Shown here: positions 2,791 through 42,295 of the stretch, piece by piece
Layout of the letters: each line of letters opens with the position of its first letter
How positions within the stretch are numbered: position 1 is the stretch's first letter
Source of the DNA: Nitrosopumilus sp.
Lineage (GTDB): Archaea > Thermoproteota > Nitrososphaeria > Nitrososphaerales > Nitrosopumilaceae
DNA length: 64,000 bases
Assembly: GCA_965203315.1 (NCBI GenBank)
Contig: OZ241857.1
Span: 1,408,001 to 1,472,000 of the forward strand
Direction: 5' to 3'
Position numbers and translations under genes: made by a program
The notes under the pieces: generated by a model
Seen by the model: the letters and a program-made list of their open reading frames with translations, nothing else
Databases searched by the model: none
Told to the model about the DNA's origin: nothing

Positions 2791-2953
2791 TACCAACGAA
2801 AATAAGTTTTGACATAAATAGCATATCAAATCTCTATAGATCAAAATGTAGGATTCAAACCCTTTTTTACTCTATGAAAATAGCGTTTTTAATCAACCAA
2901 CATAGAGATTGATAGCATTGATGTATTGTTTGTGTCAGAATTTTTTGGCGATA
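2791..2953. mobile_element. MITE family A, copy 1
   Basis: ~160 bp non-coding; imperfect terminal IRs (taccaacgaaaataagttttgacata / tgtgtcagaattttttggcgata); diverged reverse-complement copy at 3993-4380. Confidence 0.75.
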
Positions 2954-3006
2954 TAGATGCTTTTTATAGATCTTTCTATTTTAAAATTAAAAGATAAAAA
3001 CAAAAA

Positions 3007-3918
3007 CTAATGTTTAATCTTCCTGTAGAGTTTTAAGAGTTGTTTAGTTCTCGACTGACCTATTGTACTGTACAGTAAACTTTGATAAAACATTCGAAAT
3101 CTATTTCTATTGGAATATGTTTTCCACATTGATTTTTTATACCAAAATCGTTCATAAAAACTCAATTCTTTTAGAATATTCGAATTTATATTTTTTGTTT
3201 CTTGACAGATATCACTAGTGACTTGTAAAGAATCTTGATGTTTTCTAACTTTAGCCAAACTTTGATCTATAAAATGAATTTTATATTCATATATGATACA
3301 TAATCTACACAATATCTCCTCTTCTCCAATTTTTAGTGATTCATCAAACATCACATAGTCAAATGCTGACTTGTGTATTAGAGTAGTGATAATACTATAG
3401 TTGAAATTCGTTAGCATTATGACATTTATTGATTTTTGATCTAGATAGTTATAATCTTTGCACACGTTACGTTTTAATATATTTTCTCTTGAATCTACTA
3501 AATCATAATTAGTGTATAATATTAACTTTGGATCATTTTTCTCTAATGCAGTTTTAATCAAAACTTCAACGCAGTTTGATTTCAATACATCATCCGAATC
3601 TACAAACTTGATCCATTCGGCACTTGCTACTCTTATCCCAGTATTACGTGCGGCCGAGACTCCTTTATGTTCTTGATGTATTATAATTATTTTTTTTGGG
3701 GGGAGGGGGAGAGGAGTCGTAACACGTTCATATTCATCTAATATACTGGCTGTGTTATCTGTAGAGCCATCATCTATTACTATTATCTCTATATTCTTGT
3801 ATGTTTGGTTTATGATACTATCTAAACATTCCTTAATGTGCGTCTCTCTATTATACGCTGGTATGATGACTGATATCAGTGGATTTGTATTCATAATGTC
3901 CTTAGATTTGATTTTCAT
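3007..3918 (-). CDS. Family 2 glycosyltransferase (AT-rich; start may be 3894)
   Basis: ISVIIPAYN, IIVIDDGSTDNT, GVSAARNTGI, FVDSDD (DxD). Confidence 0.92.
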   Translation of the reverse strand: MKIKSKDIMNTNPLISVIIPAYNRETHIKECLDSIINQTYKNIEIIVIDDGSTDNTASILDEYERVTTPLPLPPKKIIIIHQEHKGVSAARNTGIRVASAEWIKFVDSDDVLKSNCVEVLIKTALEKNDPKLILYTNYDLVDSRENILKRNVCKDYNYLDQKSINVIMLTNFNYSIITTLIHKSAFDYVMFDESLKIGEEEILCRLCIIYEYKIHFIDQSLAKVRKHQDSLQVTSDICQETKNINSNILKELSFYERFWYKKSMWKTYSNRNRFRMFYQSLLYSTIGQSRTKQLLKLYRKIKH

Positions 3919-3992: not shown

Positions 3993-4380
3993 ATATGTCG
4001 CAGAAAATAAATTTTGACATAAACAATACATCCCTGCTATCAACCACTATGTTGATTGATTAAAAACACTATCTTTAAAGGTAAAAAAAGGGTTTGAGCC
4101 TTACATTTTGATTCATAGAGATTTGATATGCTATTTATAGTGCCCGAAATAAATAATTTTAGGTTGTTATTTATCCATAGGCCATATGCAAATTATGATT
4201 TGTTTATACAATATTCAATAAGAATTACATTTAATCGATTTTTACCTCTAGAAATTACACCTTTTACTAAATTTCAAAATGTGTATAAAATATAAGAAAT
4301 TTGAGTTAGTCTTATGGAAAAATAACTACCTAAAGTTAGTTTTTCCGAGTACTATATGTCAAAACTTATTTTCGTTGGTA
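3993..4380. mobile_element. MITE family A, copy 2 (inverted), interrupted by MITE B
   Basis: 3993-4137 plus 4355-4380 is the reverse complement of 2791-2953; terminal tatgtcaaaacttattttcgttggta matches copy 1 exactly. Confidence 0.75.
4138..4354. mobile_element. MITE family B nested in MITE A, TA target duplication
   Basis: ~35 bp imperfect TIR (tagtgcccgaaataaataattttaggttgttattt / aaataactacctaaagttagtttttccgagtacta); removing it plus one TA restores the MITE A sequence. Confidence 0.75.
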
Positions 4381-4382
4381 TA

Positions 4383-4513
4383 TAGTCACGAACGGAATTG
4401 TTTTCTTGTTTACTTTTGCGTATGTGAGATCAGAGACGGAATTTACCTCTAGCGGAACAGATAACGCCAAATTATGATACTATGCACTCGGAAAATTATT
4501 ATGTTCACGACTA
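4383..4513. mobile_element. MITE family C (IS630-type ends), copy 1
   Basis: Ends tagtcacgaac... / ...ggaaaattattatgttcacgacta resemble TIRs of the IS630 at 32861-34393; TA flanks; second copy at 13451-13581. Confidence 0.85.
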
Positions 4514-4578
4514 TATAACAATAATGTGTCAGATATTCCAGATACAAATAGACACCACTCTTACCAAAAGTCATCGAT

Positions 4579-4965
4579 CTAACAACATGTAATTGGATTA
4601 CTTTGATCAGTATTGATATTGATCTTTATATCTGATTTAATCTCATCAAACTGAGATTTATCCAAAACAATTAGAGGAATATTGGCCAATGCACAACCAG
4701 TTACAACAGTAATATCTGCCTTTGCACACAACATTGCACATGGCCCGACATTGTTTTGTTTTATAGAGTATATGGTATATGCTCCTACGCTGCTACCAAC
4801 ACCACTAGGAAAGACCAAAACCACATCTTTAAGAGATCTGTTGTACAATGGATGATCACTGTCTGTAATTACACCAGTATCTTTGTTTACCGTGCCAAGG
4901 AAATTTATCGCTGCCGATGATCGTAATACTGTACCCCTTGCCTGACCTCTTACTAGGACCTTCAT
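4579..4965 (-). CDS. Aconitase X swivel subunit (DUF126), probable phosphomevalonate dehydratase small subunit
   Basis: INFLGTVNKDTGVI, VLVFPSGVGSSVGAY; coupled to DUF521 gene. Confidence 0.85.
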   Translation of the reverse strand: MKVLVRGQARGTVLRSSAAINFLGTVNKDTGVITDSDHPLYNRSLKDVVLVFPSGVGSSVGAYTIYSIKQNNVGPCAMLCAKADITVVTGCALANIPLIVLDKSQFDEIKSDIKININTDQSNPITCC

Positions 4966-6113
4966 TGTGTCTCGTCCTGAATTATATCTGAGAGGGGCTT
5001 TAGATTGACACCAACACCATTAGAGTTTTTGAGATAGAATGCTCCTTTGATACTGTTTGTAGTTACAGAATCGACTGTATCTTTGTTGATCAATGGAGTG
5101 AGACATGTACAACAATCAGCAAGTATCTCACATCCTGCTCGCTCTAATGTATCTACACACCCAATCTCCGTTGCCTGCTCTTTTACCACTCTGGGGCAGA
5201 ATATCATACATCGTCTTTTAAAGAAGCGCCCCTTGAGGCGTGTAGCGACGTCAACCATCTCTTCCAATCCAAGTTGTGGACTACCTAGTGTAATCAGATC
5301 GCCATGCTCGGCTGTGTTTAACTCGTCATGTATCTCTTGTAGTTCTTTTTTATCAAAATCAATCTTTTCTGTATCTGGTTGATCACCAAAGAGAAATTTA
5401 GCACAAGTGCCAGATGTTCCCATCCCGCCACACATCGCTTTACATTGTCTATGATCCATCTCTTTTAGTCCTGATATTCCAACTGACGTATCACCAACTT
5501 TTCCTGCAAAATATCCAAGCATTCCATATGTTAACTCGTCAGGTTGATCGACACTCATTCTAATTGTAATGTTTGGTTTGACATCTGCGCGTAATGACGA
5601 GTATGGACTCTTTCCTGTCAATGCACTAGCCAATGCACTAAATGCACTCTCTTTATTGGTCTTTAGATCATCATACGAGTTTGCATGTATTGCAGCATTA
5701 CTCTCAGCAAATGCTACCTGAGTCCCAGAACTAGGAATATCATATATCTCATATGGAATACATGAAAAGGATAAATCTACACCCATTCTCTTATACGACT
5801 CTCGTATAGAGAGCTGTTTTGTAATAAAATTTTCATCGAGATTATATTTTTGCACAGAGTCTTGATCAAAACCCATTGGATTTAGTGTAGTCTGTATCTT
5901 TACACGCGCATCTCTGCTCAATTCATCTAGAAACTCTTGACCTACATCGCCTATGGTATTATAATTTACACCTGAGAGGTGTGCCCATCTTACCGGTACA
6001 AGTCGTTCTGCGTCTGTTGCCTCGCCTGTCGCAGCTAGCACTCTGTATGCCATCTGCAAGGTACTCCCATGTTTACCATCAAGTGCCTCTTCTTCATATC
6101 TATCAAGTTCCAT
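4962..6113 (-). CDS. Aconitase X catalytic subunit (DUF521), probable phosphomevalonate dehydratase large subunit
   Basis: MELDRYEEEALDGKHG, AHLSGVNY, SCIPY, AFAESNA, DCCTC, TNSIKGAFY; start moved to 6113 because the longer ORF overlaps nth. Confidence 0.88.
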   Translation of the reverse strand: MELDRYEEEALDGKHGSTLQMAYRVLAATGEATDAERLVPVRWAHLSGVNYNTIGDVGQEFLDELSRDARVKIQTTLNPMGFDQDSVQKYNLDENFITKQLSIRESYKRMGVDLSFSCIPYEIYDIPSSGTQVAFAESNAAIHANSYDDLKTNKESAFSALASALTGKSPYSSLRADVKPNITIRMSVDQPDELTYGMLGYFAGKVGDTSVGISGLKEMDHRQCKAMCGGMGTSGTCAKFLFGDQPDTEKIDFDKKELQEIHDELNTAEHGDLITLGSPQLGLEEMVDVATRLKGRFFKRRCMIFCPRVVKEQATEIGCVDTLERAGCEILADCCTCLTPLINKDTVDSVTTNSIKGAFYLKNSNGVGVNLKPLSDIIQDETQ

Positions 6114-14956: not shown

Positions 14957-15871
14957 ATGAAAGAGGTAGGCAAGATATGGATGAATGGCAAACTAGTTCC
15001 ATTCAAGTCTGCCAAGGTTCATGTACTTACACATGGTTTGCATTATGCAACTGCAATATTTGAGGGCATTAGATGTTACAACACTTTGAAAGGATCTGCA
15101 ATATTCCGACTAGAAGAACATGTAGATCGACTCTTTACATCTGCAAAGTTGTACTCTATGAAGATGCAGTTCTCTAAAAGACAGATCATGGATGGTGTAA
15201 TTAATACTGTAAAGGCGAGCGGTCACAAAGAATGTTACATCCGACCTCTTGCATACTATGGATATGGTACCATGGGACTGACTCCAACACAAAACAAGGT
15301 CGACTTGTCGATATCGTGTTGGGAGTGGAAGATGGGCGAATCAAAAGCAGGCAAGTTTACTGGTGCAAAATGTGAGATATCTAGCTGGATCAAGATCGAT
15401 TCTAGATCACAACCGATGCAAGCAAAGGCAGCATCAAACTATGCAAATGCAGCACTTGCGCGCGTAGAGGCTCTAAACAACGGCTATGATGAAGCTATAA
15501 TGTTAAACTTGCATGGCAAGGTCGTAGAGGGTAGTGCTGAGAATATCTTTATCGTAAAAGATGATCTAGTATATACTCCACCACTATCCTCGGGTTGTCT
15601 TGCAGGAATAACAAGAGACAGCATAATTCAGATAATCGAAGCAAATGGTGGTGGTGTCATCGAGAAAGACTTGGAGCGTGACGATCTGTACATTGCTGAT
15701 GAGATATTCATGACAGGAACTGCAGCGGAAGTAAAGTCTGTCACGCAGATAGATAACGTCAAGATTGGAGATGGCAAGATGGGCAAGAACACAAAGATGC
15801 TACAAAAACTATTCTCAGATGCAGTGATGGGTAGAGACGAGCGATTTCTATCATGGCTAACTTACATTTAA
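14957..15871 (+). CDS. ilvE: Branched-chain amino acid aminotransferase
   Basis: HGLHYATAIFEGIR, CYIRP, AKAASNY, EGSAENIF, LAGITR, FMTGTAAEV. Confidence 0.95.
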   Translation: MKEVGKIWMNGKLVPFKSAKVHVLTHGLHYATAIFEGIRCYNTLKGSAIFRLEEHVDRLFTSAKLYSMKMQFSKRQIMDGVINTVKASGHKECYIRPLAYYGYGTMGLTPTQNKVDLSISCWEWKMGESKAGKFTGAKCEISSWIKIDSRSQPMQAKAASNYANAALARVEALNNGYDEAIMLNLHGKVVEGSAENIFIVKDDLVYTPPLSSGCLAGITRDSIIQIIEANGGGVIEKDLERDDLYIADEIFMTGTAAEVKSVTQIDNVKIGDGKMGKNTKMLQKLFSDAVMGRDERFLSWLTYI

Positions 15872-15876
15872 TACTC

Positions 15877-16014
15877 TAGTTCTCGGTAAGGGATCTTTTC
15901 GGTTTATGTGAGATGAATGGTTACAGAAAAAGCGCTACAAGATTCTATAAAGGAAAATTATCGAAAAAGCCTTGTGAAAAGATATCCAATGTAAATCGAA
16001 GAGATCCTGCGAGA
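15877..16014. mobile_element. Degenerate MITE family F
   Basis: Imperfect IR ggatcttttcggttta / taaatcgaagagatcc; a related end recurs at 16554. Confidence 0.45.
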
Positions 16015-16226
16015 GGTTCTGTTCAATTGACTGGGGCTCTACACTTTACAATTGTGAAATTTGGAATGAAAACATCCTGATTTGTCTCCAATTTTTCTAA
16101 ATTTAGCAAAATAACGAACATTTTTTGCAATCTGTATCAACAACACAAAAATCTAGGATCAATCGGTTATTAGGTAAAACGTCTAAATTCATGAAAACTG
16201 ATAACTCGTGACAATTGAACAGAACT
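16015..16226. mobile_element. MITE family E (IS6-like ends)
   Basis: 14 bp perfect IR gttctgttcaattg / caattgaacagaac; GGTTCTGTT start resembles IS6-family ends. Confidence 0.65.
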
Positions 16227-16243
16227 CAATAAAACACATCTAT

Positions 16244-16308
16244 AAAAAAGATGGTTACTGCTGTGCTGCAGACTATACCCATTTGTTTGTTTTATTGGGA
16301 GTAACCAA
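16244..16308 (-). ncRNA. Candidate small hairpin RNA complementary to the adjacent tRNA-like gene
   Basis: 8 bp closing stem tggttact/agtaacca, T6 run downstream on minus strand, AT-rich TATA-like box near 16327-16334; carries complements of tRNA 16382-16389 and 16389-16400. Confidence 0.45.
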
Positions 16309-16342
16309 TCTATATAGCATACTACTTAATTTAACTATTACT

Positions 16343-16428
16343 GACAGTGTAGTTTAGATCGGTTAGAACGCCCAACTGAAGATTGGGAGCTGTGCTGCAG
16401 CACGAGGGTTCAAATCCCTCCACTGTCG
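16343..16428 (+). tRNA. Atypical tRNA with GAA (Phe) anticodon, 16-nt variable region and G73
   Basis: Acceptor gacagtg/cactgtc, D-arm gttt-agatcggtta-gaac, anticodon cccaa-ctgaaga-ttggg, variable agctgtgctgcagcac, T-arm gaggg-ttcaaat-ccctc. Confidence 0.85.
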
Positions 16429-16553
16429 TATATGTCTGGATCCAATAACGTTCAACATTCTATTCGACACTATAAGCCAATCATCAAAAGTGAACATATC
16501 TGTTAACACAAATGTGTGTTTCTTGACAAGTATTCTGACCGTATTTGATATAT

Positions 16554-16610
16554 AGGATCTCTTCGATTTATGCGAAATGGAATTTTGACATAAAAAGTAA
16601 TACACTACTT
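16554..16610. repeat. Partial second copy of MITE F end
   Basis: aggatctcttcgattta is the exact reverse complement of the right IR of 15877-16014 and aligns loosely with its left end. Confidence 0.4.
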
Positions 16611-16714
16611 TGACATGTCAAATGATTAGGCGAACTATTCTTCATATACCGCAGTAGCAGAATAACTCTTACATAATCACTTGATTCATAAATACATGTT
16701 TTGGATATTTGTTG

Positions 16715-16900
16715 TTGAGTCTCACACCATCTAAATTGAGAGAACCTAGATGCTCTACAAGTACCGCAGACATATGCTGGTTTTGTCACAAAGGTCGTCA
16801 TGATGACTGTATGTTAGAGATCCCTACATATGCAGAGACCGATGGACCACATGACTGTACATTTGACACAAAGATGATTCCATGCAAGTGTCAACACTAG
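16715..16900 (+). CDS. Small Cys/His-rich hypothetical protein (possible metal binder)
   Basis: CWFCHKGRHDDC...HDC...CKCQH; abuts methyltransferase gene. Confidence 0.6.
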   Translation: MSLTPSKLREPRCSTSTADICWFCHKGRHDDCMLEIPTYAETDGPHDCTFDTKMIPCKCQH

Positions 16901-16912
16901 GTGTTTTGTATC

Positions 16913-17461
16913 ATGGATGATACATTTTGGGATAGATATGCTCAAGAGAATGAGTCTAGATACAATGTAGAGTTTGCCAAGTTTACAAGAGATCTCGCAG
17001 TATCGCTACACTGTTCTAGCGTACTTGAAATAGGATGTGGCACCGGAATCGATCTACGACTATTTCCAGATACGTTTGAGATGTATGGTCTAGATCCCAA
17101 CCATACGGCGTTATCTATAGCTCGAGAAAAACTACCAAAGGTACGTTTTGAGATAGGTACGATCACAGATCTACCGTTTGACGAATCACAGATCGACTTT
17201 GTCTTTACACATCAGCTACTAAACTATCTAGATGATCATACGCTAGAGTCTGGTATGTCAGAGATGTACCGCGTCGCAGGGCGGTACATAATGAACTGTG
17301 AAAAATTTTCCGAGTCAGAGACACCCATAGATGAACACCACAAGTATCGAGACATGAGAACTAGATGGTCCAACTATAACGTAAAGATCATAAGTAATGT
17401 AAACATGCATAAAGAGATCGAACCTGATGAGGCGAGATTTACGTTAGTCAAAAAATTATGA
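16913..17461 (+). CDS. Class I SAM-dependent methyltransferase
   Basis: VLEIGCGTG, LPFDESQIDFVF. Confidence 0.9.
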   Translation: MDDTFWDRYAQENESRYNVEFAKFTRDLAVSLHCSSVLEIGCGTGIDLRLFPDTFEMYGLDPNHTALSIAREKLPKVRFEIGTITDLPFDESQIDFVFTHQLLNYLDDHTLESGMSEMYRVAGRYIMNCEKFSESETPIDEHHKYRDMRTRWSNYNVKIISNVNMHKEIEPDEARFTLVKKL

Positions 17462-17541: not shown

Positions 17542-20500
17542 GTGAGTGATCAAGAGACCAATCAAAAAAAGTTAACCAAAAACTACAAACACTATCAAGA
17601 CAAACTCTTACAAGTCACAAAGCGAAATCGTTCTGTCCTTCTCAAAAGAATTTACACCAAACATAACTTTGATCTAAAACAATTGGATGATCTAAAAGAT
17701 GGCACCGTAAATAAAATACTCTTAAAGGCAATTAAAAATATCAGCGCGTCTATCGATGATAAAATAGACGAAGGCAAGTTACAGAATATTCTCTCGGACT
17801 CGATCGAAGCCGAGTCTGCTGATTCGATGCGATCTAAATTAAACTCTCTAAAGAGAAATCTTGTATTAATTGAAGAAGAGACTGGACAGCAGACCGGTTA
17901 TCTAGGATTTCCGTTTCTCGAAGGTCATATAGATCCAGACTTTTATGTTAGAGGACCAATCGTCTTGTTTCCAATATCGATAGAGTATATCAGACGATCA
18001 AGAAATAGCGGTTGGTTCTTGCGTCTTGAGGATAGACGACCGATACTAAACGGTGCATTGATTGTAGCACTCAAGAAGAGAGGAGGATACACACTACCAG
18101 AAGACTATGAAGAGACGTTTGATGAGATGATCGAGAGTATCCCCAAATCTACAGATCAAAGTACATTCTTTGATATGATAAACGAGTGGGTCAAGACATT
18201 GATCCCTATACAAGACACACTAAATGTACCCGAGAGTGTAAAGCTTGACACATTAAGTAAAGAGAGACTATCGACTCTAGATACACAAAAGTATCATCTG
18301 GTCAACTATACAATAATAGGAAACTTTCCACAAGCAGATAATCAGATATACAAAGACTATAACAAATTGATCGAAGATGCTAATCCAGGCCAAGTAGTAT
18401 CAAATCTATTAGATATTGTAGACGATATCACACATACAGATGAGATCGATGATCCATATACAGACGAGTATGATCCTGATACAAAAATAAACGGCAACGA
18501 TATGCTCCTAAACCTAGCACTCCCAAGTGACTCTAGTCAAGATCAGGTAATTCTAGAATCAAAGAGTTCAGATCTAGTAGTTGTGCGAGGACCGCCAGGC
18601 ACAGGCAAGTCTCAAGTTATAGTAAATCTCGTAACAGATGCATTATGCAACAATAGACGAGTTGCAGTGATATGTCAGAAACGTGCTGCACTCCAAGTCG
18701 TTAAACAGAGATTGGGAAAGATCGGATTAGATCAGTACGTGGTATTTTTAGGAAAAGAGTCAGATGATAGAAGAAAGATGTATCAACAGTTACATGATAT
18801 TATCATGAGAGATCCAGAACCGATATCTAGTTCTGAGAAGACGATTCAAGATATCTCAAATGATATAGACAATTGCATAAAGTACCTAGTAGATATCGGA
18901 ACTGCACTAGTACGAGAGTACGATGGCGCAACTGCACACAAGATATACTCTAAAGCAGATGGCAAGTACAAACGTGTACTAGATATCTCTGATCTCAATC
19001 TAGAGTGGAAAAGGTTGGACAGATACATACAAGATATCGCAGATGTTGAGGATCAGTTTAAAAGATTTGAAGACCAATCTCACCCGTGGTTTGGTAGAAT
19101 AAACTTTACAGATATTGGTATATTGGAGAGAGACGAGATGATAAGAGATCTAGAGTATCTCCTAGAGATCACTCCCAAGTGTATACTTGTACAAGATCAA
19201 AAACTTCAGATACGTTTAGAGTCACTCTTTGACACATATCTCAATGATCCTGGCTTTTTAAAGTTCAGACGGCGAGGAGCAAAAAAGGAGATCAAGAGTA
19301 TAATGTCTCGTGATATTACAGATCAGTTTGTAGCAGAGTCGTTTGACAAGATCAAGAGTGGTATAAAATTTTGGAGGCGATTTGAGAGACTATTAGGGAG
19401 GTTTGGTGATGATAGAGCAGATGTGTTACGATCTCATATAGGTACAGATACTCTGACATCTAGACTTACAAAGATGAGAGAGACACTTGATCAGTTTGAT
19501 GCCATGCAAGAGTTTGATAAAAAAAAGTTGGAATACGACAAATCGATATTTGCACTGTTATCTCAAGCAAAGACTCGTATGAGTATGGACTCTAGCTGGG
19601 CTCCAAATATCAGACAAGAGATATACATACATTGGCTCGCACATATCGAACGAGAGAATCCAATTCTAAAAGGTGAACCTAAAGCCAACTATGAATCACA
19701 TAGAATGAGACTTGCAGAACTGATGGACGAGAAACAAAAGATAGTCATAAAGACCATAACACGAAACATAGTAGGAAGAATAAGACAGAATGATATCTAT
19801 GGACGAAAGACTAGAGCCAATCAAAAGTTAAAAGACTTTGTAACAGAGTTGAAGCGCAAACGCAAAGTGAAACCTGTTAGAAGATTGTTTGAAGAGTACT
19901 CTAAACAGATGTTTCAAATTGCACCCTGCTGGCTGTTGTCACCAGAGATGGTCTCCAAGGTATTTCCATTAGAGAGAGATCTATTTGATCTCGTAATAGT
20001 AGACGAAGCTAGTCAGCTTGCAGTAGAGAGATCCATACCGTTTATTCATAGAGCGAAACATGTGGTTATTGCTGGAGATGAGAAACAACTCTCTCCATTT
20101 GATCTCTTTCAGATCAGTGAAGACGAAGATGAAGACGACGAGATAGTGATAGAAAAGAGTCTGCTAGAACTTGCTAGAACTAGATACAAGACCACCAATC
20201 TCAGTTGGCATTATCGATCCAGGTATCAAGAGTTGATAGACTTTTCAAATCATGCCTTTTACAATGGACTGCTAAACGTTGCACCAAATGTGATGATATC
20301 TCCCCCACGCCCTCCAATTCGATTCATAAAATGTAATGGAGTGTGGGAGAATCGCAGTAATATTGTTGAAGCAGAACGAATAGTAGACGAGATAAAGAGT
20401 ATCTTGAGGAACAGCAGAGATCTGGGAGAGGAGTATCCATCGATCGGCGTTATAACCTTTGGTGATGAACAACGTGATATAATAGACGATAACATCAACA

Positions 20501-21249
20501 AGATGCAGTATAACGATCCAGAGTTTGCAGAGATGTACAATACTGCATATGCCAATGCAGATAAAGACGACAGACTCTTTGTAAGAAATATCGAGAACGT
20601 TCAAGGTGACGAACGTGACGTAATAATCTTCTCGATCGGATACGCGAGAGATCATGATGGAAACTTTGCAAACAGATTTGGAACCCTTAGTGTAAAGGGA
20701 GGAGAGAATAGACTAAACGTAGCAATAACTAGGGCAAGACGTTCCATGATTGTGGTATCTTCCATCGAGCCTCAAGAGATCAAAGAGACATCAAAGAACG
20801 ATGGACCTAGACTGTTACGTAAATTTTTAGAGTATGCAAAGATGGTCGATAGCCTCGATACAAAGGGCAAGGAGAGGATTCTCGGTGAGATCATACCAGA
20901 CATGCCGAGAAGACAAGAGGAGACGATCTTTGACTCAGAGTTTGAGAAAGAGGTCTGTCAGCGTTTGAGAGAGAATGGCTATGAAGTGGATACACAGATT
21001 GGGTCTTCTGGTTATAGAATAGATCTCTGCATAGTACACCCCAACGATCCCAAACGTTATGTCCTCGGTGTAGAGTGTGATGGTGCAACGTTTCATTCTG
21101 CAAAGAGCGTAAAAGAGAGAGATGTGATGCGACAGAGATTTCTAGAAGACAAGGGTTGGCATATTGAGAGGATTTGGAGTAGCAACTGGTGGAGAGATCC
21201 GGAACGAGAGATATCTAGGATCAAGACTGTTATTGATGGTCTTTTATGA
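17542..21249 (+). CDS. DUF4011 + Upf1/Dna2-like SF1 helicase + C-terminal restriction-endonuclease/Vsr-like domain
   Basis: N-term KLLQVTKRNR...EETG...YLGFPF; GPPGTGKS, VDEASQ, GDEKQL, HYRS, ENVQGDERD, RLNVAITRAR; C-term DSEFE...RIDL...VECDGATFH...RQRFLE..GW..ERIWS. Confidence 0.88.
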   Translation: MSDQETNQKKLTKNYKHYQDKLLQVTKRNRSVLLKRIYTKHNFDLKQLDDLKDGTVNKILLKAIKNISASIDDKIDEGKLQNILSDSIEAESADSMRSKLNSLKRNLVLIEEETGQQTGYLGFPFLEGHIDPDFYVRGPIVLFPISIEYIRRSRNSGWFLRLEDRRPILNGALIVALKKRGGYTLPEDYEETFDEMIESIPKSTDQSTFFDMINEWVKTLIPIQDTLNVPESVKLDTLSKERLSTLDTQKYHLVNYTIIGNFPQADNQIYKDYNKLIEDANPGQVVSNLLDIVDDITHTDEIDDPYTDEYDPDTKINGNDMLLNLALPSDSSQDQVILESKSSDLVVVRGPPGTGKSQVIVNLVTDALCNNRRVAVICQKRAALQVVKQRLGKIGLDQYVVFLGKESDDRRKMYQQLHDIIMRDPEPISSSEKTIQDISNDIDNCIKYLVDIGTALVREYDGATAHKIYSKADGKYKRVLDISDLNLEWKRLDRYIQDIADVEDQFKRFEDQSHPWFGRINFTDIGILERDEMIRDLEYLLEITPKCILVQDQKLQIRLESLFDTYLNDPGFLKFRRRGAKKEIKSIMSRDITDQFVAESFDKIKSGIKFWRRFERLLGRFGDDRADVLRSHIGTDTLTSRLTKMRETLDQFDAMQEFDKKKLEYDKSIFALLSQAKTRMSMDSSWAPNIRQEIYIHWLAHIERENPILKGEPKANYESHRMRLAELMDEKQKIVIKTITRNIVGRIRQNDIYGRKTRANQKLKDFVTELKRKRKVKPVRRLFEEYSKQMFQIAPCWLLSPEMVSKVFPLERDLFDLVIVDEASQLAVERSIPFIHRAKHVVIAGDEKQLSPFDLFQISEDEDEDDEIVIEKSLLELARTRYKTTNLSWHYRSRYQELIDFSNHAFYNGLLNVAPNVMISPPRPPIRFIKCNGVWENRSNIVEAERIVDEIKSILRNSRDLGEEYPSIGVITFGDEQRDIIDDNINKMQYNDPEFAEMYNTAYANADKDDRLFVRNIENVQGDERDVIIFSIGYARDHDGNFANRFGTLSVKGGENRLNVAITRARRSMIVVSSIEPQEIKETSKNDGPRLLRKFLEYAKMVDSLDTKGKERILGEIIPDMPRRQEETIFDSEFEKEVCQRLRENGYEVDTQIGSSGYRIDLCIVHPNDPKRYVLGVECDGATFHSAKSVKERDVMRQRFLEDKGWHIERIWSSNWWRDPEREISRIKTVIDGLL

Positions 21250-21264
21250 TCGTGATAGTATAGG

Positions 21265-21338
21265 CGGGTCTAGAGGGATTCGAACCCACGACAGCAGGAT
21301 TAAGAGTCCTGTGCGCTACCTGGCTGCGCCATAGACCC
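21265..21338 (-). tRNA. tRNA-Lys(CTT)
   Basis: gggtcta/tagaccc acceptor, cagga-ctcttaa-tcctg anticodon arm, ttcgaat T-loop (one T-stem mismatch). Confidence 0.93.
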
Positions 21339-42208: not shown

Positions 42209-42295
42209 CGGGGAGTAGATTTGAACTACTGATTTGCGGGTTATGAGCCCGCCGGGATGACCTAGTCCTTAATAGTCTGACTTCCCCACCCCGCT
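42206..42295 (-). tRNA. Initiator tRNA-Met(CAT) with ~15 nt intron in the D-loop
   Basis: A1-U72 (agcgggg/ccccgct), G-C-rich anticodon stem gcggg-ctcataa-cccgc, extra sequence (approx. tcagactattaagga) between D-stem halves ggga/tccc. Confidence 0.88.

Follow-up and report, generated by a model that had tools for sequence, protein, structure and literature searches.

In a 64-kb stretch of archaeal DNA (contig C1, 1408001-1472000; hereafter the window, to which all coordinates without a contig name refer), an atypical tRNA-Phe-like gene, here designated Phe88, is preceded by a rearranged copy of part of its own interior: 19 nt comprising the 3' strand of the anticodon stem and the variable arm recur upstream as two blocks in swapped order, placed on either side of an 8-bp stem. 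This permuted upstream copy is non-random and not the outcome of chance. On sequence comparison, the Phe unit is one of at least four such pairs in the genome, each with sequences specific to its locus, and no such unit was found in the relatives examined. As the best, tentatively held reading we propose that the upstream element encodes a small RNA, about 60 nt in length, that would be transcribed divergently and pair with the neighboring tRNA-like RNA.

The permuted copy at the Phe locus

The element and the gene consist of the following parts:

16244-16307, minus strand: candidate small RNA of about 60 nt, with an 8-bp terminal stem, two tRNA-complementary blocks, an inner 4-bp helix and a U6 tail
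16244-16249: A6, which reads as U6 on the minus strand, after the hairpin
16252-16259: stem arm TGGTTACT, the exact complement of AGTAACCA at 16300-16307; paired in the predicted fold
16260-16271: block Y, GCTGTGCTGCAG, an exact copy of Phe88 positions 16389-16400 (the variable-arm insert), on the minus strand CUGCAGCACAGC; repeat family D4
16278-16299: inner hairpin CCCA...TGGG, which copies the Phe88 anticodon stem (CCCAA/TTGGG) with a different loop; paired in the predicted fold
16294-16301: block X, ATTGGGAG, an exact copy of Phe88 positions 16382-16389 (3' anticodon-stem strand plus AG); repeat family D20
16310-16317, plus strand: CTATATAG, the likely TATA box of Phe88, at -33 to -26, the usual place in canonical tRNA genes (41 upstream regions listed)
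16326-16342, minus strand: A/T box AGTAATAGTTAAAT (minus-strand reading), candidate promoter of the minus-strand RNA, with a weak matrix score of 4.9 bits
16343-16428, plus strand: Phe88, tRNA-like gene with anticodon GAA (Rfam tRNA 60.7 bits; ARAGORN Phe(GAA), 88 nt)
16382-16400, plus strand: the 19-nt stretch of Phe88 that recurs upstream as two swapped blocks

A preliminary description of this DNA had reported the recurrence of the 19-mer as two permuted blocks flanking the 8-bp stem, together with the U6 tract and two A/T-rich boxes (tatata at 16311-16316 and taatttaa at 16327-16334), and direct reading of the sequence bore out every one of these coordinates. The 12-mer of block Y is present in exactly two copies in the window; when one mismatch is allowed, three matches are found, compared with a shuffle mean of 0.23, and none of 100 shuffles reached three. 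When the 80 nt preceding the gene were shuffled 20,000 times at the mononucleotide level, six shuffles gave a same-sense match of at least 12 nt to the tRNA. The hairpin, read on either strand, matches no Rfam family at E<=10 (16000-16700 scanned).

Phe88 itself is an unusual gene. Its variable region measures 16 nt and contains a 4-bp stem, the base after its acceptor stem is a G, and the trinucleotide AGC is repeated at both edges of the variable-region insert; its body is that of a short-variable-arm tRNA to which a 4-bp arm has been added. A second, canonical tRNA-Phe(GAA), with a 5-nt variable loop, an A after the acceptor stem and a G+C content of 71%, is present at C1:1784347-1784421, and Phe88 is thus supernumerary and atypical. 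Canonical tRNA-Phe carries the discriminator base A73. Phe88 shares with it the cloverleaf and the GAA anticodon and lacks both A73 and the short variable loop. Nor does it show the conservation expected of a canonical tRNA-Phe, as it was not found among same-genus relatives and its locus is an insertion relative to two of them (G006 and G007).

Recurrence at other tRNA-like genes and absence from relatives

Each of the 46 tRNAs that ARAGORN calls in the genome was compared with its own 150-nt flanks. Three of them possess a same-sense upstream match of at least 10 nt, namely Phe88 (12 nt), Asp87 (11 nt) and Gly87 (14 nt), and the other 43 reach 9 nt at most. These are also the three non-Leu/Ser tRNAs that are drawn with long variable regions and without a splicing motif. 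Together with a degenerate tRNA-like gene (c192), Gly87 and Asp87 make up three further loci at which a permuted self-copy lies 33-60 nt upstream of a tRNA-like gene, and a fifth tRNA-like copy (c610) is decayed:

C5:238808-238894: Gly87, called as Gly(GCC), 87 nt; the tRNA reads ACTTGTCGCCAA-C-AAGTTGTTAAGTAC and the region from -60 to -34 reads AAGTTGTTAAGTAC-A-ACTTGTCGCCAA
C1:1671758-1671844, minus strand: Asp87, called as Asp(GTC), 87 nt, with the same block swap (10 + 11 nt)
C1:192645-192728: c192, degenerate tRNA-like gene with upstream matches of 11 + 7 nt; Rfam tRNA undetected at E<=1
c610: shortened fifth tRNA-like copy with a decayed upstream match

When the four tRNA-like genes were compared with the four upstream regions (-100 to -21; same-sense exact matches of at least 7 nt), the matches fell within loci: 12+8 nt for Phe, 14+12 nt for Gly87, 11+10 nt for Asp87 and 11+7 nt for c192, with just two 7-mers off the diagonal. 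Each locus has sequences of its own, matched only within that locus. Each copy is a circular permutation of the order 5' anticodon-stem strand, loop, 3' strand and variable region, and in it the 5' stem strand is attached to the variable region. For Gly87, Asp87 and c192 the permutation breaks between loop and 3' strand; at the Phe locus it does so between the 3' strand and the variable region. No upstream copies accompany the other weak tRNA-like hits of the genome. One such hit lies within the window (42214-42271, minus strand; C1:1450214-1450271), a weak partial match of 24.9 bits, below the Rfam threshold and without an upstream self-copy.

Gly87 (48.1 bits) and Asp87 (31.9 bits) have a D arm (TGTGCYAGAGC..GG), a T arm and a 3' trailer in common. 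Their T arm and ACCA end resemble those of the tRNA-Leu genes of this genome, and alignment places their 11-nt "inserts" opposite the tRNA-Leu variable arm. Both can be read as long-variable-arm tRNAs, with anticodon loops UCGCCAA and UCGUCAA in which a C stands in place of the expected U33. The same D-arm motif is also found in a metagenome-contig tRNA with anticodon TGA and a long variable arm. Canonical Gly and Asp tRNAs are present elsewhere in the genome, and Gly87 and Asp87 are, like Phe88, supernumerary and atypical. Several tRNA copies of the genome are redundant, the Asp anticodon GTC is found in four genes (C1:718538, 845138, 1406350 and 1671760), and one of these (C1:1406350-1406421, 39.9 bits) receives no ARAGORN call.

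The upstream regions of Gly87, c192 and c610 belong to a repeat family of about 105-125 nt that has four additional members (c382, c1672, c243 and c1658; n=7 in total), all of them copies of the module without a tRNA-like gene; for c243, c1658 and c1672, no matching tRNA-like sequence was found elsewhere in the genome. The seven copies have unrelated flanks. A covariance model built from them returns, when searched against its own genome, just these seven (92-117 bits), and the next best hit scores 19 bits. Variation within the family is greatest in the roughly 9 nt that are complementary to the anticodon loop, and the remainder is 72% identical on average; both of the predicted family hairpins are inverted repeats with spacers of 5-10 bp. 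The kinship of the Phe and Asp87 units to this family consists in a shared layout and a similar motif at the minus-strand end (...CCAUCU followed by a U run), as judged by eye.

The Phe tRNA/hairpin was absent from 24 same-genus genomes and, by pattern, from 150 such genomes; comparison at the DNA level with the 150 gave nothing apart from T-arm matches to tRNA-Leu, and the covariance model had no hit in the same set. In 400 genomes of the order, all matches outside this genome, among those listed, fell within T-arm positions 151-190 of the query, and a pattern search of 400 genomes of the family found none. Scans of viral contigs gave no match, and phage records either none or T-arm matches only. 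A 19-mer has seven matches in public genome contigs, in unrelated bacterial bins and one Methanotrichaceae bin, which by our estimate is about as many as chance would give; three matches in metagenome contigs are all ordinary tRNAs, of which at least two have long variable arms, and an upstream copy accompanies none of the three. At c192, the corresponding spacer in two relatives (G002 and G003) is too diverged to place insertion ends or target duplications. To judge from these comparisons, the units are lineage-specific, dispersed and partly decayed.

A candidate divergent small RNA and its rivals

In the reading that we tentatively favor, hairpin and tRNA would form one unit, composed of a tRNA-like gene and a divergent small RNA. 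The small-RNA blocks CCCAAU and CUGCAGCACAGC, held in the terminal stem, would pair with the 3' anticodon-stem strand and the variable arm of Phe88, and would thereby unfold the tRNA-like RNA or sequester it. At the other loci, a 5' tail of the small RNA would be complementary to the anticodon loop, and its hairpin loop to the variable region. Transcription of the minus strand, pairing of the two RNAs and any effect on the tRNA-like RNA are what we infer from the relation between the sequences.

Several features are consistent with such an RNA. Cognate hairpin-tRNA pairs are favored in cofolding, in line with the proposal of the preliminary description: the gains amount to -7.0, -8.9 and -11.9 kcal/mol (of 200 shuffled partners, 3, 5 and 7 do as well), compared with 0 to -3.6 kcal/mol for non-cognate pairs, with one exception at -8.1. 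Nested cofolding of this type uses one block at a time, and RNAduplex energies over the whole molecules gave no discrimination between partners. To judge by inspection, simultaneous pairing of the two blocks would require a pair of helices lying side by side and connected at either end. When the family hairpin is read on the strand opposite the tRNA, the alignment places G·U pairs at columns 20-35 in five of the seven copies and at columns 18-37 in two of seven; altogether seven G·U cells favor the opposite strand, versus one of the opposite kind, and read on the tRNA strand they become A·C mismatches. The minus strand carries a U6 run after the Phe hairpin and a U5 run after the Asp87 hairpin, and the main seven-copy family is without a consistent U run.

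Promoters were assessed with a matrix trained on 41 tRNA genes of the genome (consensus CAAAAGATTTTAAT; median training score 6.8 bits, minimum 3.7), in which the motif usually starts 40 nt before the mature 5' end. On the minus strand, matches of 4.8-7.0 bits are situated at the module edge in five of the nine loci, with motif starts from -3 to +5. Canonical spacing would put the minus-strand 5' ends at -35 to -43, which in the family is the start of the complementarity to the anticodon loop. At the Phe locus, the minus-strand box has its motif start at -1, with a predicted 5' end near 16302; the best plus-strand score of Phe88 is 5.0 bits, with a motif start at -41. Of the antisense or guide RNA envisaged in the preliminary description, the pairing relation is supported: it is non-random, recurs with cognate sequences at three more loci and is accompanied, in the seven-copy family, by the G·U bias. 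The candidate minus-strand promoter, at 4.9 bits, did not hold up equally well.

A number of observations weigh against the small RNA. The minus-strand hairpin has a predicted energy of -13.2 kcal/mol that is not exceptional (z = -1.6; 18 of 200 shuffles are as stable), and the predicted 5' end near 16302 cuts into its 8-bp stem. A simple nested duplex cannot pair both blocks, and the exact identity of 20-26 nt goes beyond the requirements of such pairing and may be the trace of a copying process. The strand evidence is modest because the G·U cells trace back to roughly three events among related copies. Minus-strand promoter scores are likewise modest relative to the training median, and at Gly87, c243, c382 and c610 they do not exceed 4.3 bits; on the plus strand, matrix matches at the canonical distance are found directly downstream of the copies in six of the nine loci (5.0-9.8 bits), and they are the stronger ones, reaching 8.4-9.8 bits at three loci. 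It is therefore conceivable that the repeat is for the most part the upstream region of the tRNA, and the hairpins could be palindromic DNA sites for proteins. In addition, the covariance model of the seven-copy family misses the upstream regions of Phe and Asp87, so homology of the Phe unit to that family is not demonstrated, and all of the evidence comes from paralogues within one genome. A look-up of sequencing runs that cover 15900-16900 returned no RNA run, and the single run presumed to be RNA gave no match there; DNA contigs from two studies are identical to the window across the entire stretch and may be where it comes from.

The main rival to the small RNA, in our estimation unlikely, is a by-product at the level of DNA: some unknown process of recombination, repair or transposition would have written the copy, and there would be neither an antisense RNA nor a function. 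The units indeed behave like dispersed repeats, as illustrated by the seven copies of the 105-nt module with their unrelated flanks and by the failure to find the units in 150 congeners; the surroundings are full of miniature repeat elements, the Phe unit lies within an insertion of about 880 nt that is missing in two relatives, and the matches in intact pairs are exact, as expected from single-event copies. However, we were unable to derive the order of variable region, 5' stem strand and loop from tandem duplication, from site-specific integration in the anticodon loop or from inversion, and the break point differs among the three architectures. Moreover, the hairpin is maintained through G·U-type changes on one strand, and no recombinase is consistently adjacent. 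If the relation did arise at the DNA level, the process would be one that places copies of the interior of a gene, circularly permuted, in front of the gene itself, and such a process is, to our knowledge, also undescribed.

Fairly improbable, in our view, is an upstream element that acts on the tRNA strand or as DNA. It would then either belong to a long leader that competes with the anticodon stem while the RNA folds or is processed, or its palindromes would be operators bound by a regulator of the promoter that drives the tRNA-like gene. The plus-strand promoter-like matches described above, and the inverted repeats with their 5-10 bp spacers, which resemble sites for dimeric DNA-binding proteins, speak for it. 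On the tRNA strand, however, the family hairpin has A·C mismatches in five of the seven copies, and nothing about an operator would call for copying the anticodon loop and the variable region or for changing with them between paralogues; for a leader, no promoter further upstream that would include the element was identified in a search to -70.

We consider it still less probable, and frankly speculative, that the small RNA and its target form RNA-only toxin-antitoxin or abortive-infection modules, in which a mis-decoding tRNA would be charged by seryl- or leucyl-tRNA synthetase while still reading Phe, Gly or Asp codons, and the small RNA would clamp its anticodon and variable arms. Seryl- and leucyl-tRNA synthetases ignore the anticodon, and the long variable arm together with the discriminator base would make the tRNA-like RNA their substrate. 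The preliminary description had likewise offered an RNA antitoxin for a mistranslating tRNA as an example. The features behind the mis-decoding reading are G73 in Phe88, and A73 with a tRNA-Leu-like T arm in Gly87 and Asp87. The two-helix clamp would keep the tRNA out of translation, and a shut-off of transcription, for example upon infection, would release it.

Very improbable is the proposal that the 11-12 nt insert of the variable region is a non-canonical archaeal intron, with the upstream copy either unrelated or a relic of intron movement. The genome does harbor many tRNA introns, among them a 17-nt intron in the variable loop of tRNA-Val(CAC), and the AGC at both edges of the Phe insert would fit. 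Yet a script that draws the archaeal bulge-helix-bulge motif (4-bp helix, two 3-nt bulges) finds no way of drawing it that would cut the insert out of Phe88, Gly87 or Asp87, whereas the same script recovers the tRNA-Val(CAC) intron cleanly (C5:163333-163424, locus L026; splicing leaves AGGTC). The long region of Gly87 and Asp87 aligns with a natural tRNA-Leu variable arm, and the upstream copy is left unexplained. A trans-guide for removing the insert, which had also been suggested in the preliminary description, is not borne out, as no bulge-helix-bulge can be drawn.

Chance similarity within an A+T-rich spacer retains a negligible probability: the 8-mer alone is unremarkable and the hairpin is not unusually stable, but the shuffles speak against chance for the 12-mer alone, and the chance reading is refuted for practical purposes because the same layout recurs at three further loci with locus-specific sequences. 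The probability that is left over belongs to explanations of which we have not thought.

Should the minus-strand RNAs exist and bind, they would constitute regulatory RNAs with a tRNA-like RNA as their dedicated target, in which they would recognize the variable arm along with either the loop or the stem of the anticodon arm, by means of blocks in swapped order. Such a system would provide a function for supernumerary, odd tRNA genes that are annotated merely as tRNA-Phe, tRNA-Gly or tRNA-Asp, and it could tie deliberate mistranslation to archaeal defence islands.

Genomic setting of the loci

The genome behind the window comprises 2.47 Mb in 7 contigs, with a G+C content of 39%; a gene search found archaeal amoA and did not find mcrA. 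Intron-bearing tRNA genes are numerous, and miniature inverted-repeat elements crowd the genome. The segment 16234-16521 with hairpin and tRNA is unique in the genome according to a repeat comparison and is embedded as follows:

15890-16008: family A miniature inverted-repeat element (many copies genome-wide; with the next element, inverted repeats I1 and I2)
16014-16233: family B miniature inverted-repeat element (many copies genome-wide)
16522-16598: fragment of a family A element, which closes the unique segment (repeat comparison)
17542-21249, plus strand: helicase-nuclease gene, neighbor of the Phe locus, matching PDC-S37 and Hhe

Family A elements measure about 118 bp and have ends like TAAATCGAAGAGATCC, family B elements measure about 180-220 bp and end in GTTCTGTTCAATTG, and each is present in dozens of copies genome-wide; a perfect 17-nt inverted repeat (15992-16008 and 16554-16570) corresponds to two family A ends. 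The spacer between the class IV aminotransferase gene (14957-15871) and the methyltransferase gene (16901-17461) is 1,029 nt long in the window, versus a spacing within about 260 nt, with a small Cys-rich reading frame in between, in G007 and G006; the Phe hairpin-tRNA unit therefore lies in a strain-specific insertion of about 880 nt. The Cys-rich reading frame, kept in the relatives between the same two genes, is found in the window at about 16775-16900 (plus strand, within the open reading frame 16709-16900), with 88% DNA identity to G006 over 16841-16900; its start is beside the insertion and may be altered. Further upstream, a DDE transposase gene (PF01609; 12131-13285, minus strand) interrupts an otherwise syntenic block that extends from an amino-acid kinase gene to the aminotransferase gene.

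Defence-type genes, of the restriction-modification or helicase-nuclease kind, adjoin five of the nine loci (Phe, Gly87, c243, c610 and Asp87): the helicase-nuclease at the Phe locus, Type ISP enzymes at Gly87 and c243, an MmeI-type enzyme at c610 and an SNF2 helicase at Asp87. The loci c192, c382 and c1658 are situated among housekeeping genes, and no protein is common to all nine loci. The helicase-nuclease in the window is a 1,235-aa protein with a DUF4011 domain, a superfamily 1 helicase and an MTES_1575 nuclease domain; in PADLOC it matches PDC-S37 best (E 3.7e-190) and Hhe next. Its gene is located between the conserved methyltransferase gene and tRNA-Lys(CTT) (21263-21338); in G007 and G006 the gap between these two measures 1-2.4 kb, and the regions compared contain no match to the helicase-nuclease. 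The Asp87 unit is flanked, beside the SNF2 helicase, by three paralogous Cys-rich proteins of 222-225 aa (locus L047, C1:1668000-1676000; 2117-2794, 2864-3532 and 4290-4967 within it, minus strand). These proteins are 22-52% identical to one another, possess several CxxC pairs, have no Pfam or PADLOC match, and are absent from the other loci of the set.

Comparison with known systems

In split and permuted tRNAs, the halves are encoded apart or in swapped order and are joined via a splicing motif that is formed from the flanks. Disrupted archaeal tRNA genes of these types, including those with non-canonical introns, are dealt with in PMC4090602, PMC3978253 and PMC4033280. They share with the present units a tRNA-intron-rich archaeal host, a circular permutation of tRNA sequence and a complementary sequence beside the tRNA gene. 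Phe88, however, is complete and collinear; only the anticodon arm and the variable region are represented upstream, without D, T or acceptor parts, and no bulge-helix-bulge can be drawn in cis or between the two RNAs.

C/D and H/ACA guides also include small archaeal RNAs complementary to anticodon-arm regions of tRNAs, a property that the candidate RNA would share with them. The scan of 16000-16700 against Rfam at E<=10 returned neither class, and C, D and ACA boxes, a kink-turn and a pseudouridylation pocket were not seen.

Integrases that use tRNA genes leave a contiguous direct repeat of the 3' part of the tRNA at the far end of the inserted element. The blocks studied here are swapped and upstream, and the 3' 25 nt of Phe88 occur once in the window; no integrase family was found among the neighbors scanned at the loci, and a genome-wide integrase search was not made. 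A repeat that resembles this type can be seen elsewhere in the genome, at a Ser(AGA)-called tRNA with an intron (C1:939799-939904), where in the 50 nt downstream a 22-nt direct repeat of the 3' end is accompanied by a repeated trailer; it looks like the attachment-site scar of an integrated or excised element.

IS110 bridge RNAs (PMC11208160) resemble the candidate RNA in that two guide segments across a stem-closed internal loop match the two halves of a contiguous target, and in that a conserved scaffold carries guide parts which change from copy to copy. According to that paper, the bridge RNA loops pair with opposite DNA strands, the 5' side with the bottom and the 3' side with the top strand. 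Both blocks of the present element match the same strand, which sets it apart from bridge RNAs and seekRNAs. These RNAs are also encoded at the end of an IS110 or IS1111 element, beside the recombinase; of the 14 PF01548 (IS110) matches in the genome, one is situated within 1 kb of a module, that of Gly87 (one of nine loci), and none lies near the window locus.

The excerpts of the literature available to us contain no description of a small RNA dedicated to a neighboring tRNA-like gene, nor of such a mode of recognition. For the swapped arrangement as such, group II introns provide a parallel: their EBS2 and EBS1 segments pair with IBS2-IBS1, with the guides in swapped order and each in its own loop. 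As would be the case for the candidate RNA, two swapped guide segments pair with adjacent target segments; unlike group II introns, the present loci have no intron, no ribozyme domains and no reverse transcriptase.

Type I and type III toxin-antitoxin systems and kissing pairs of the CopA/CopT kind comprise antisense RNA regulators and RNA antitoxins. The units differ from them in that the target would be a tRNA-like RNA rather than an mRNA or a protein, the blocks are swapped rather than collinear, no toxin open reading frame is present, and the units are known from sequence alone. They resemble them in the predicted small structured RNA beside its target, in the complementary segments, situated in a tail and in the loop of a hairpin, from where they would contact exposed target loops, in the terminal hairpin with its U-tract, and in the location of some copies in defence islands.

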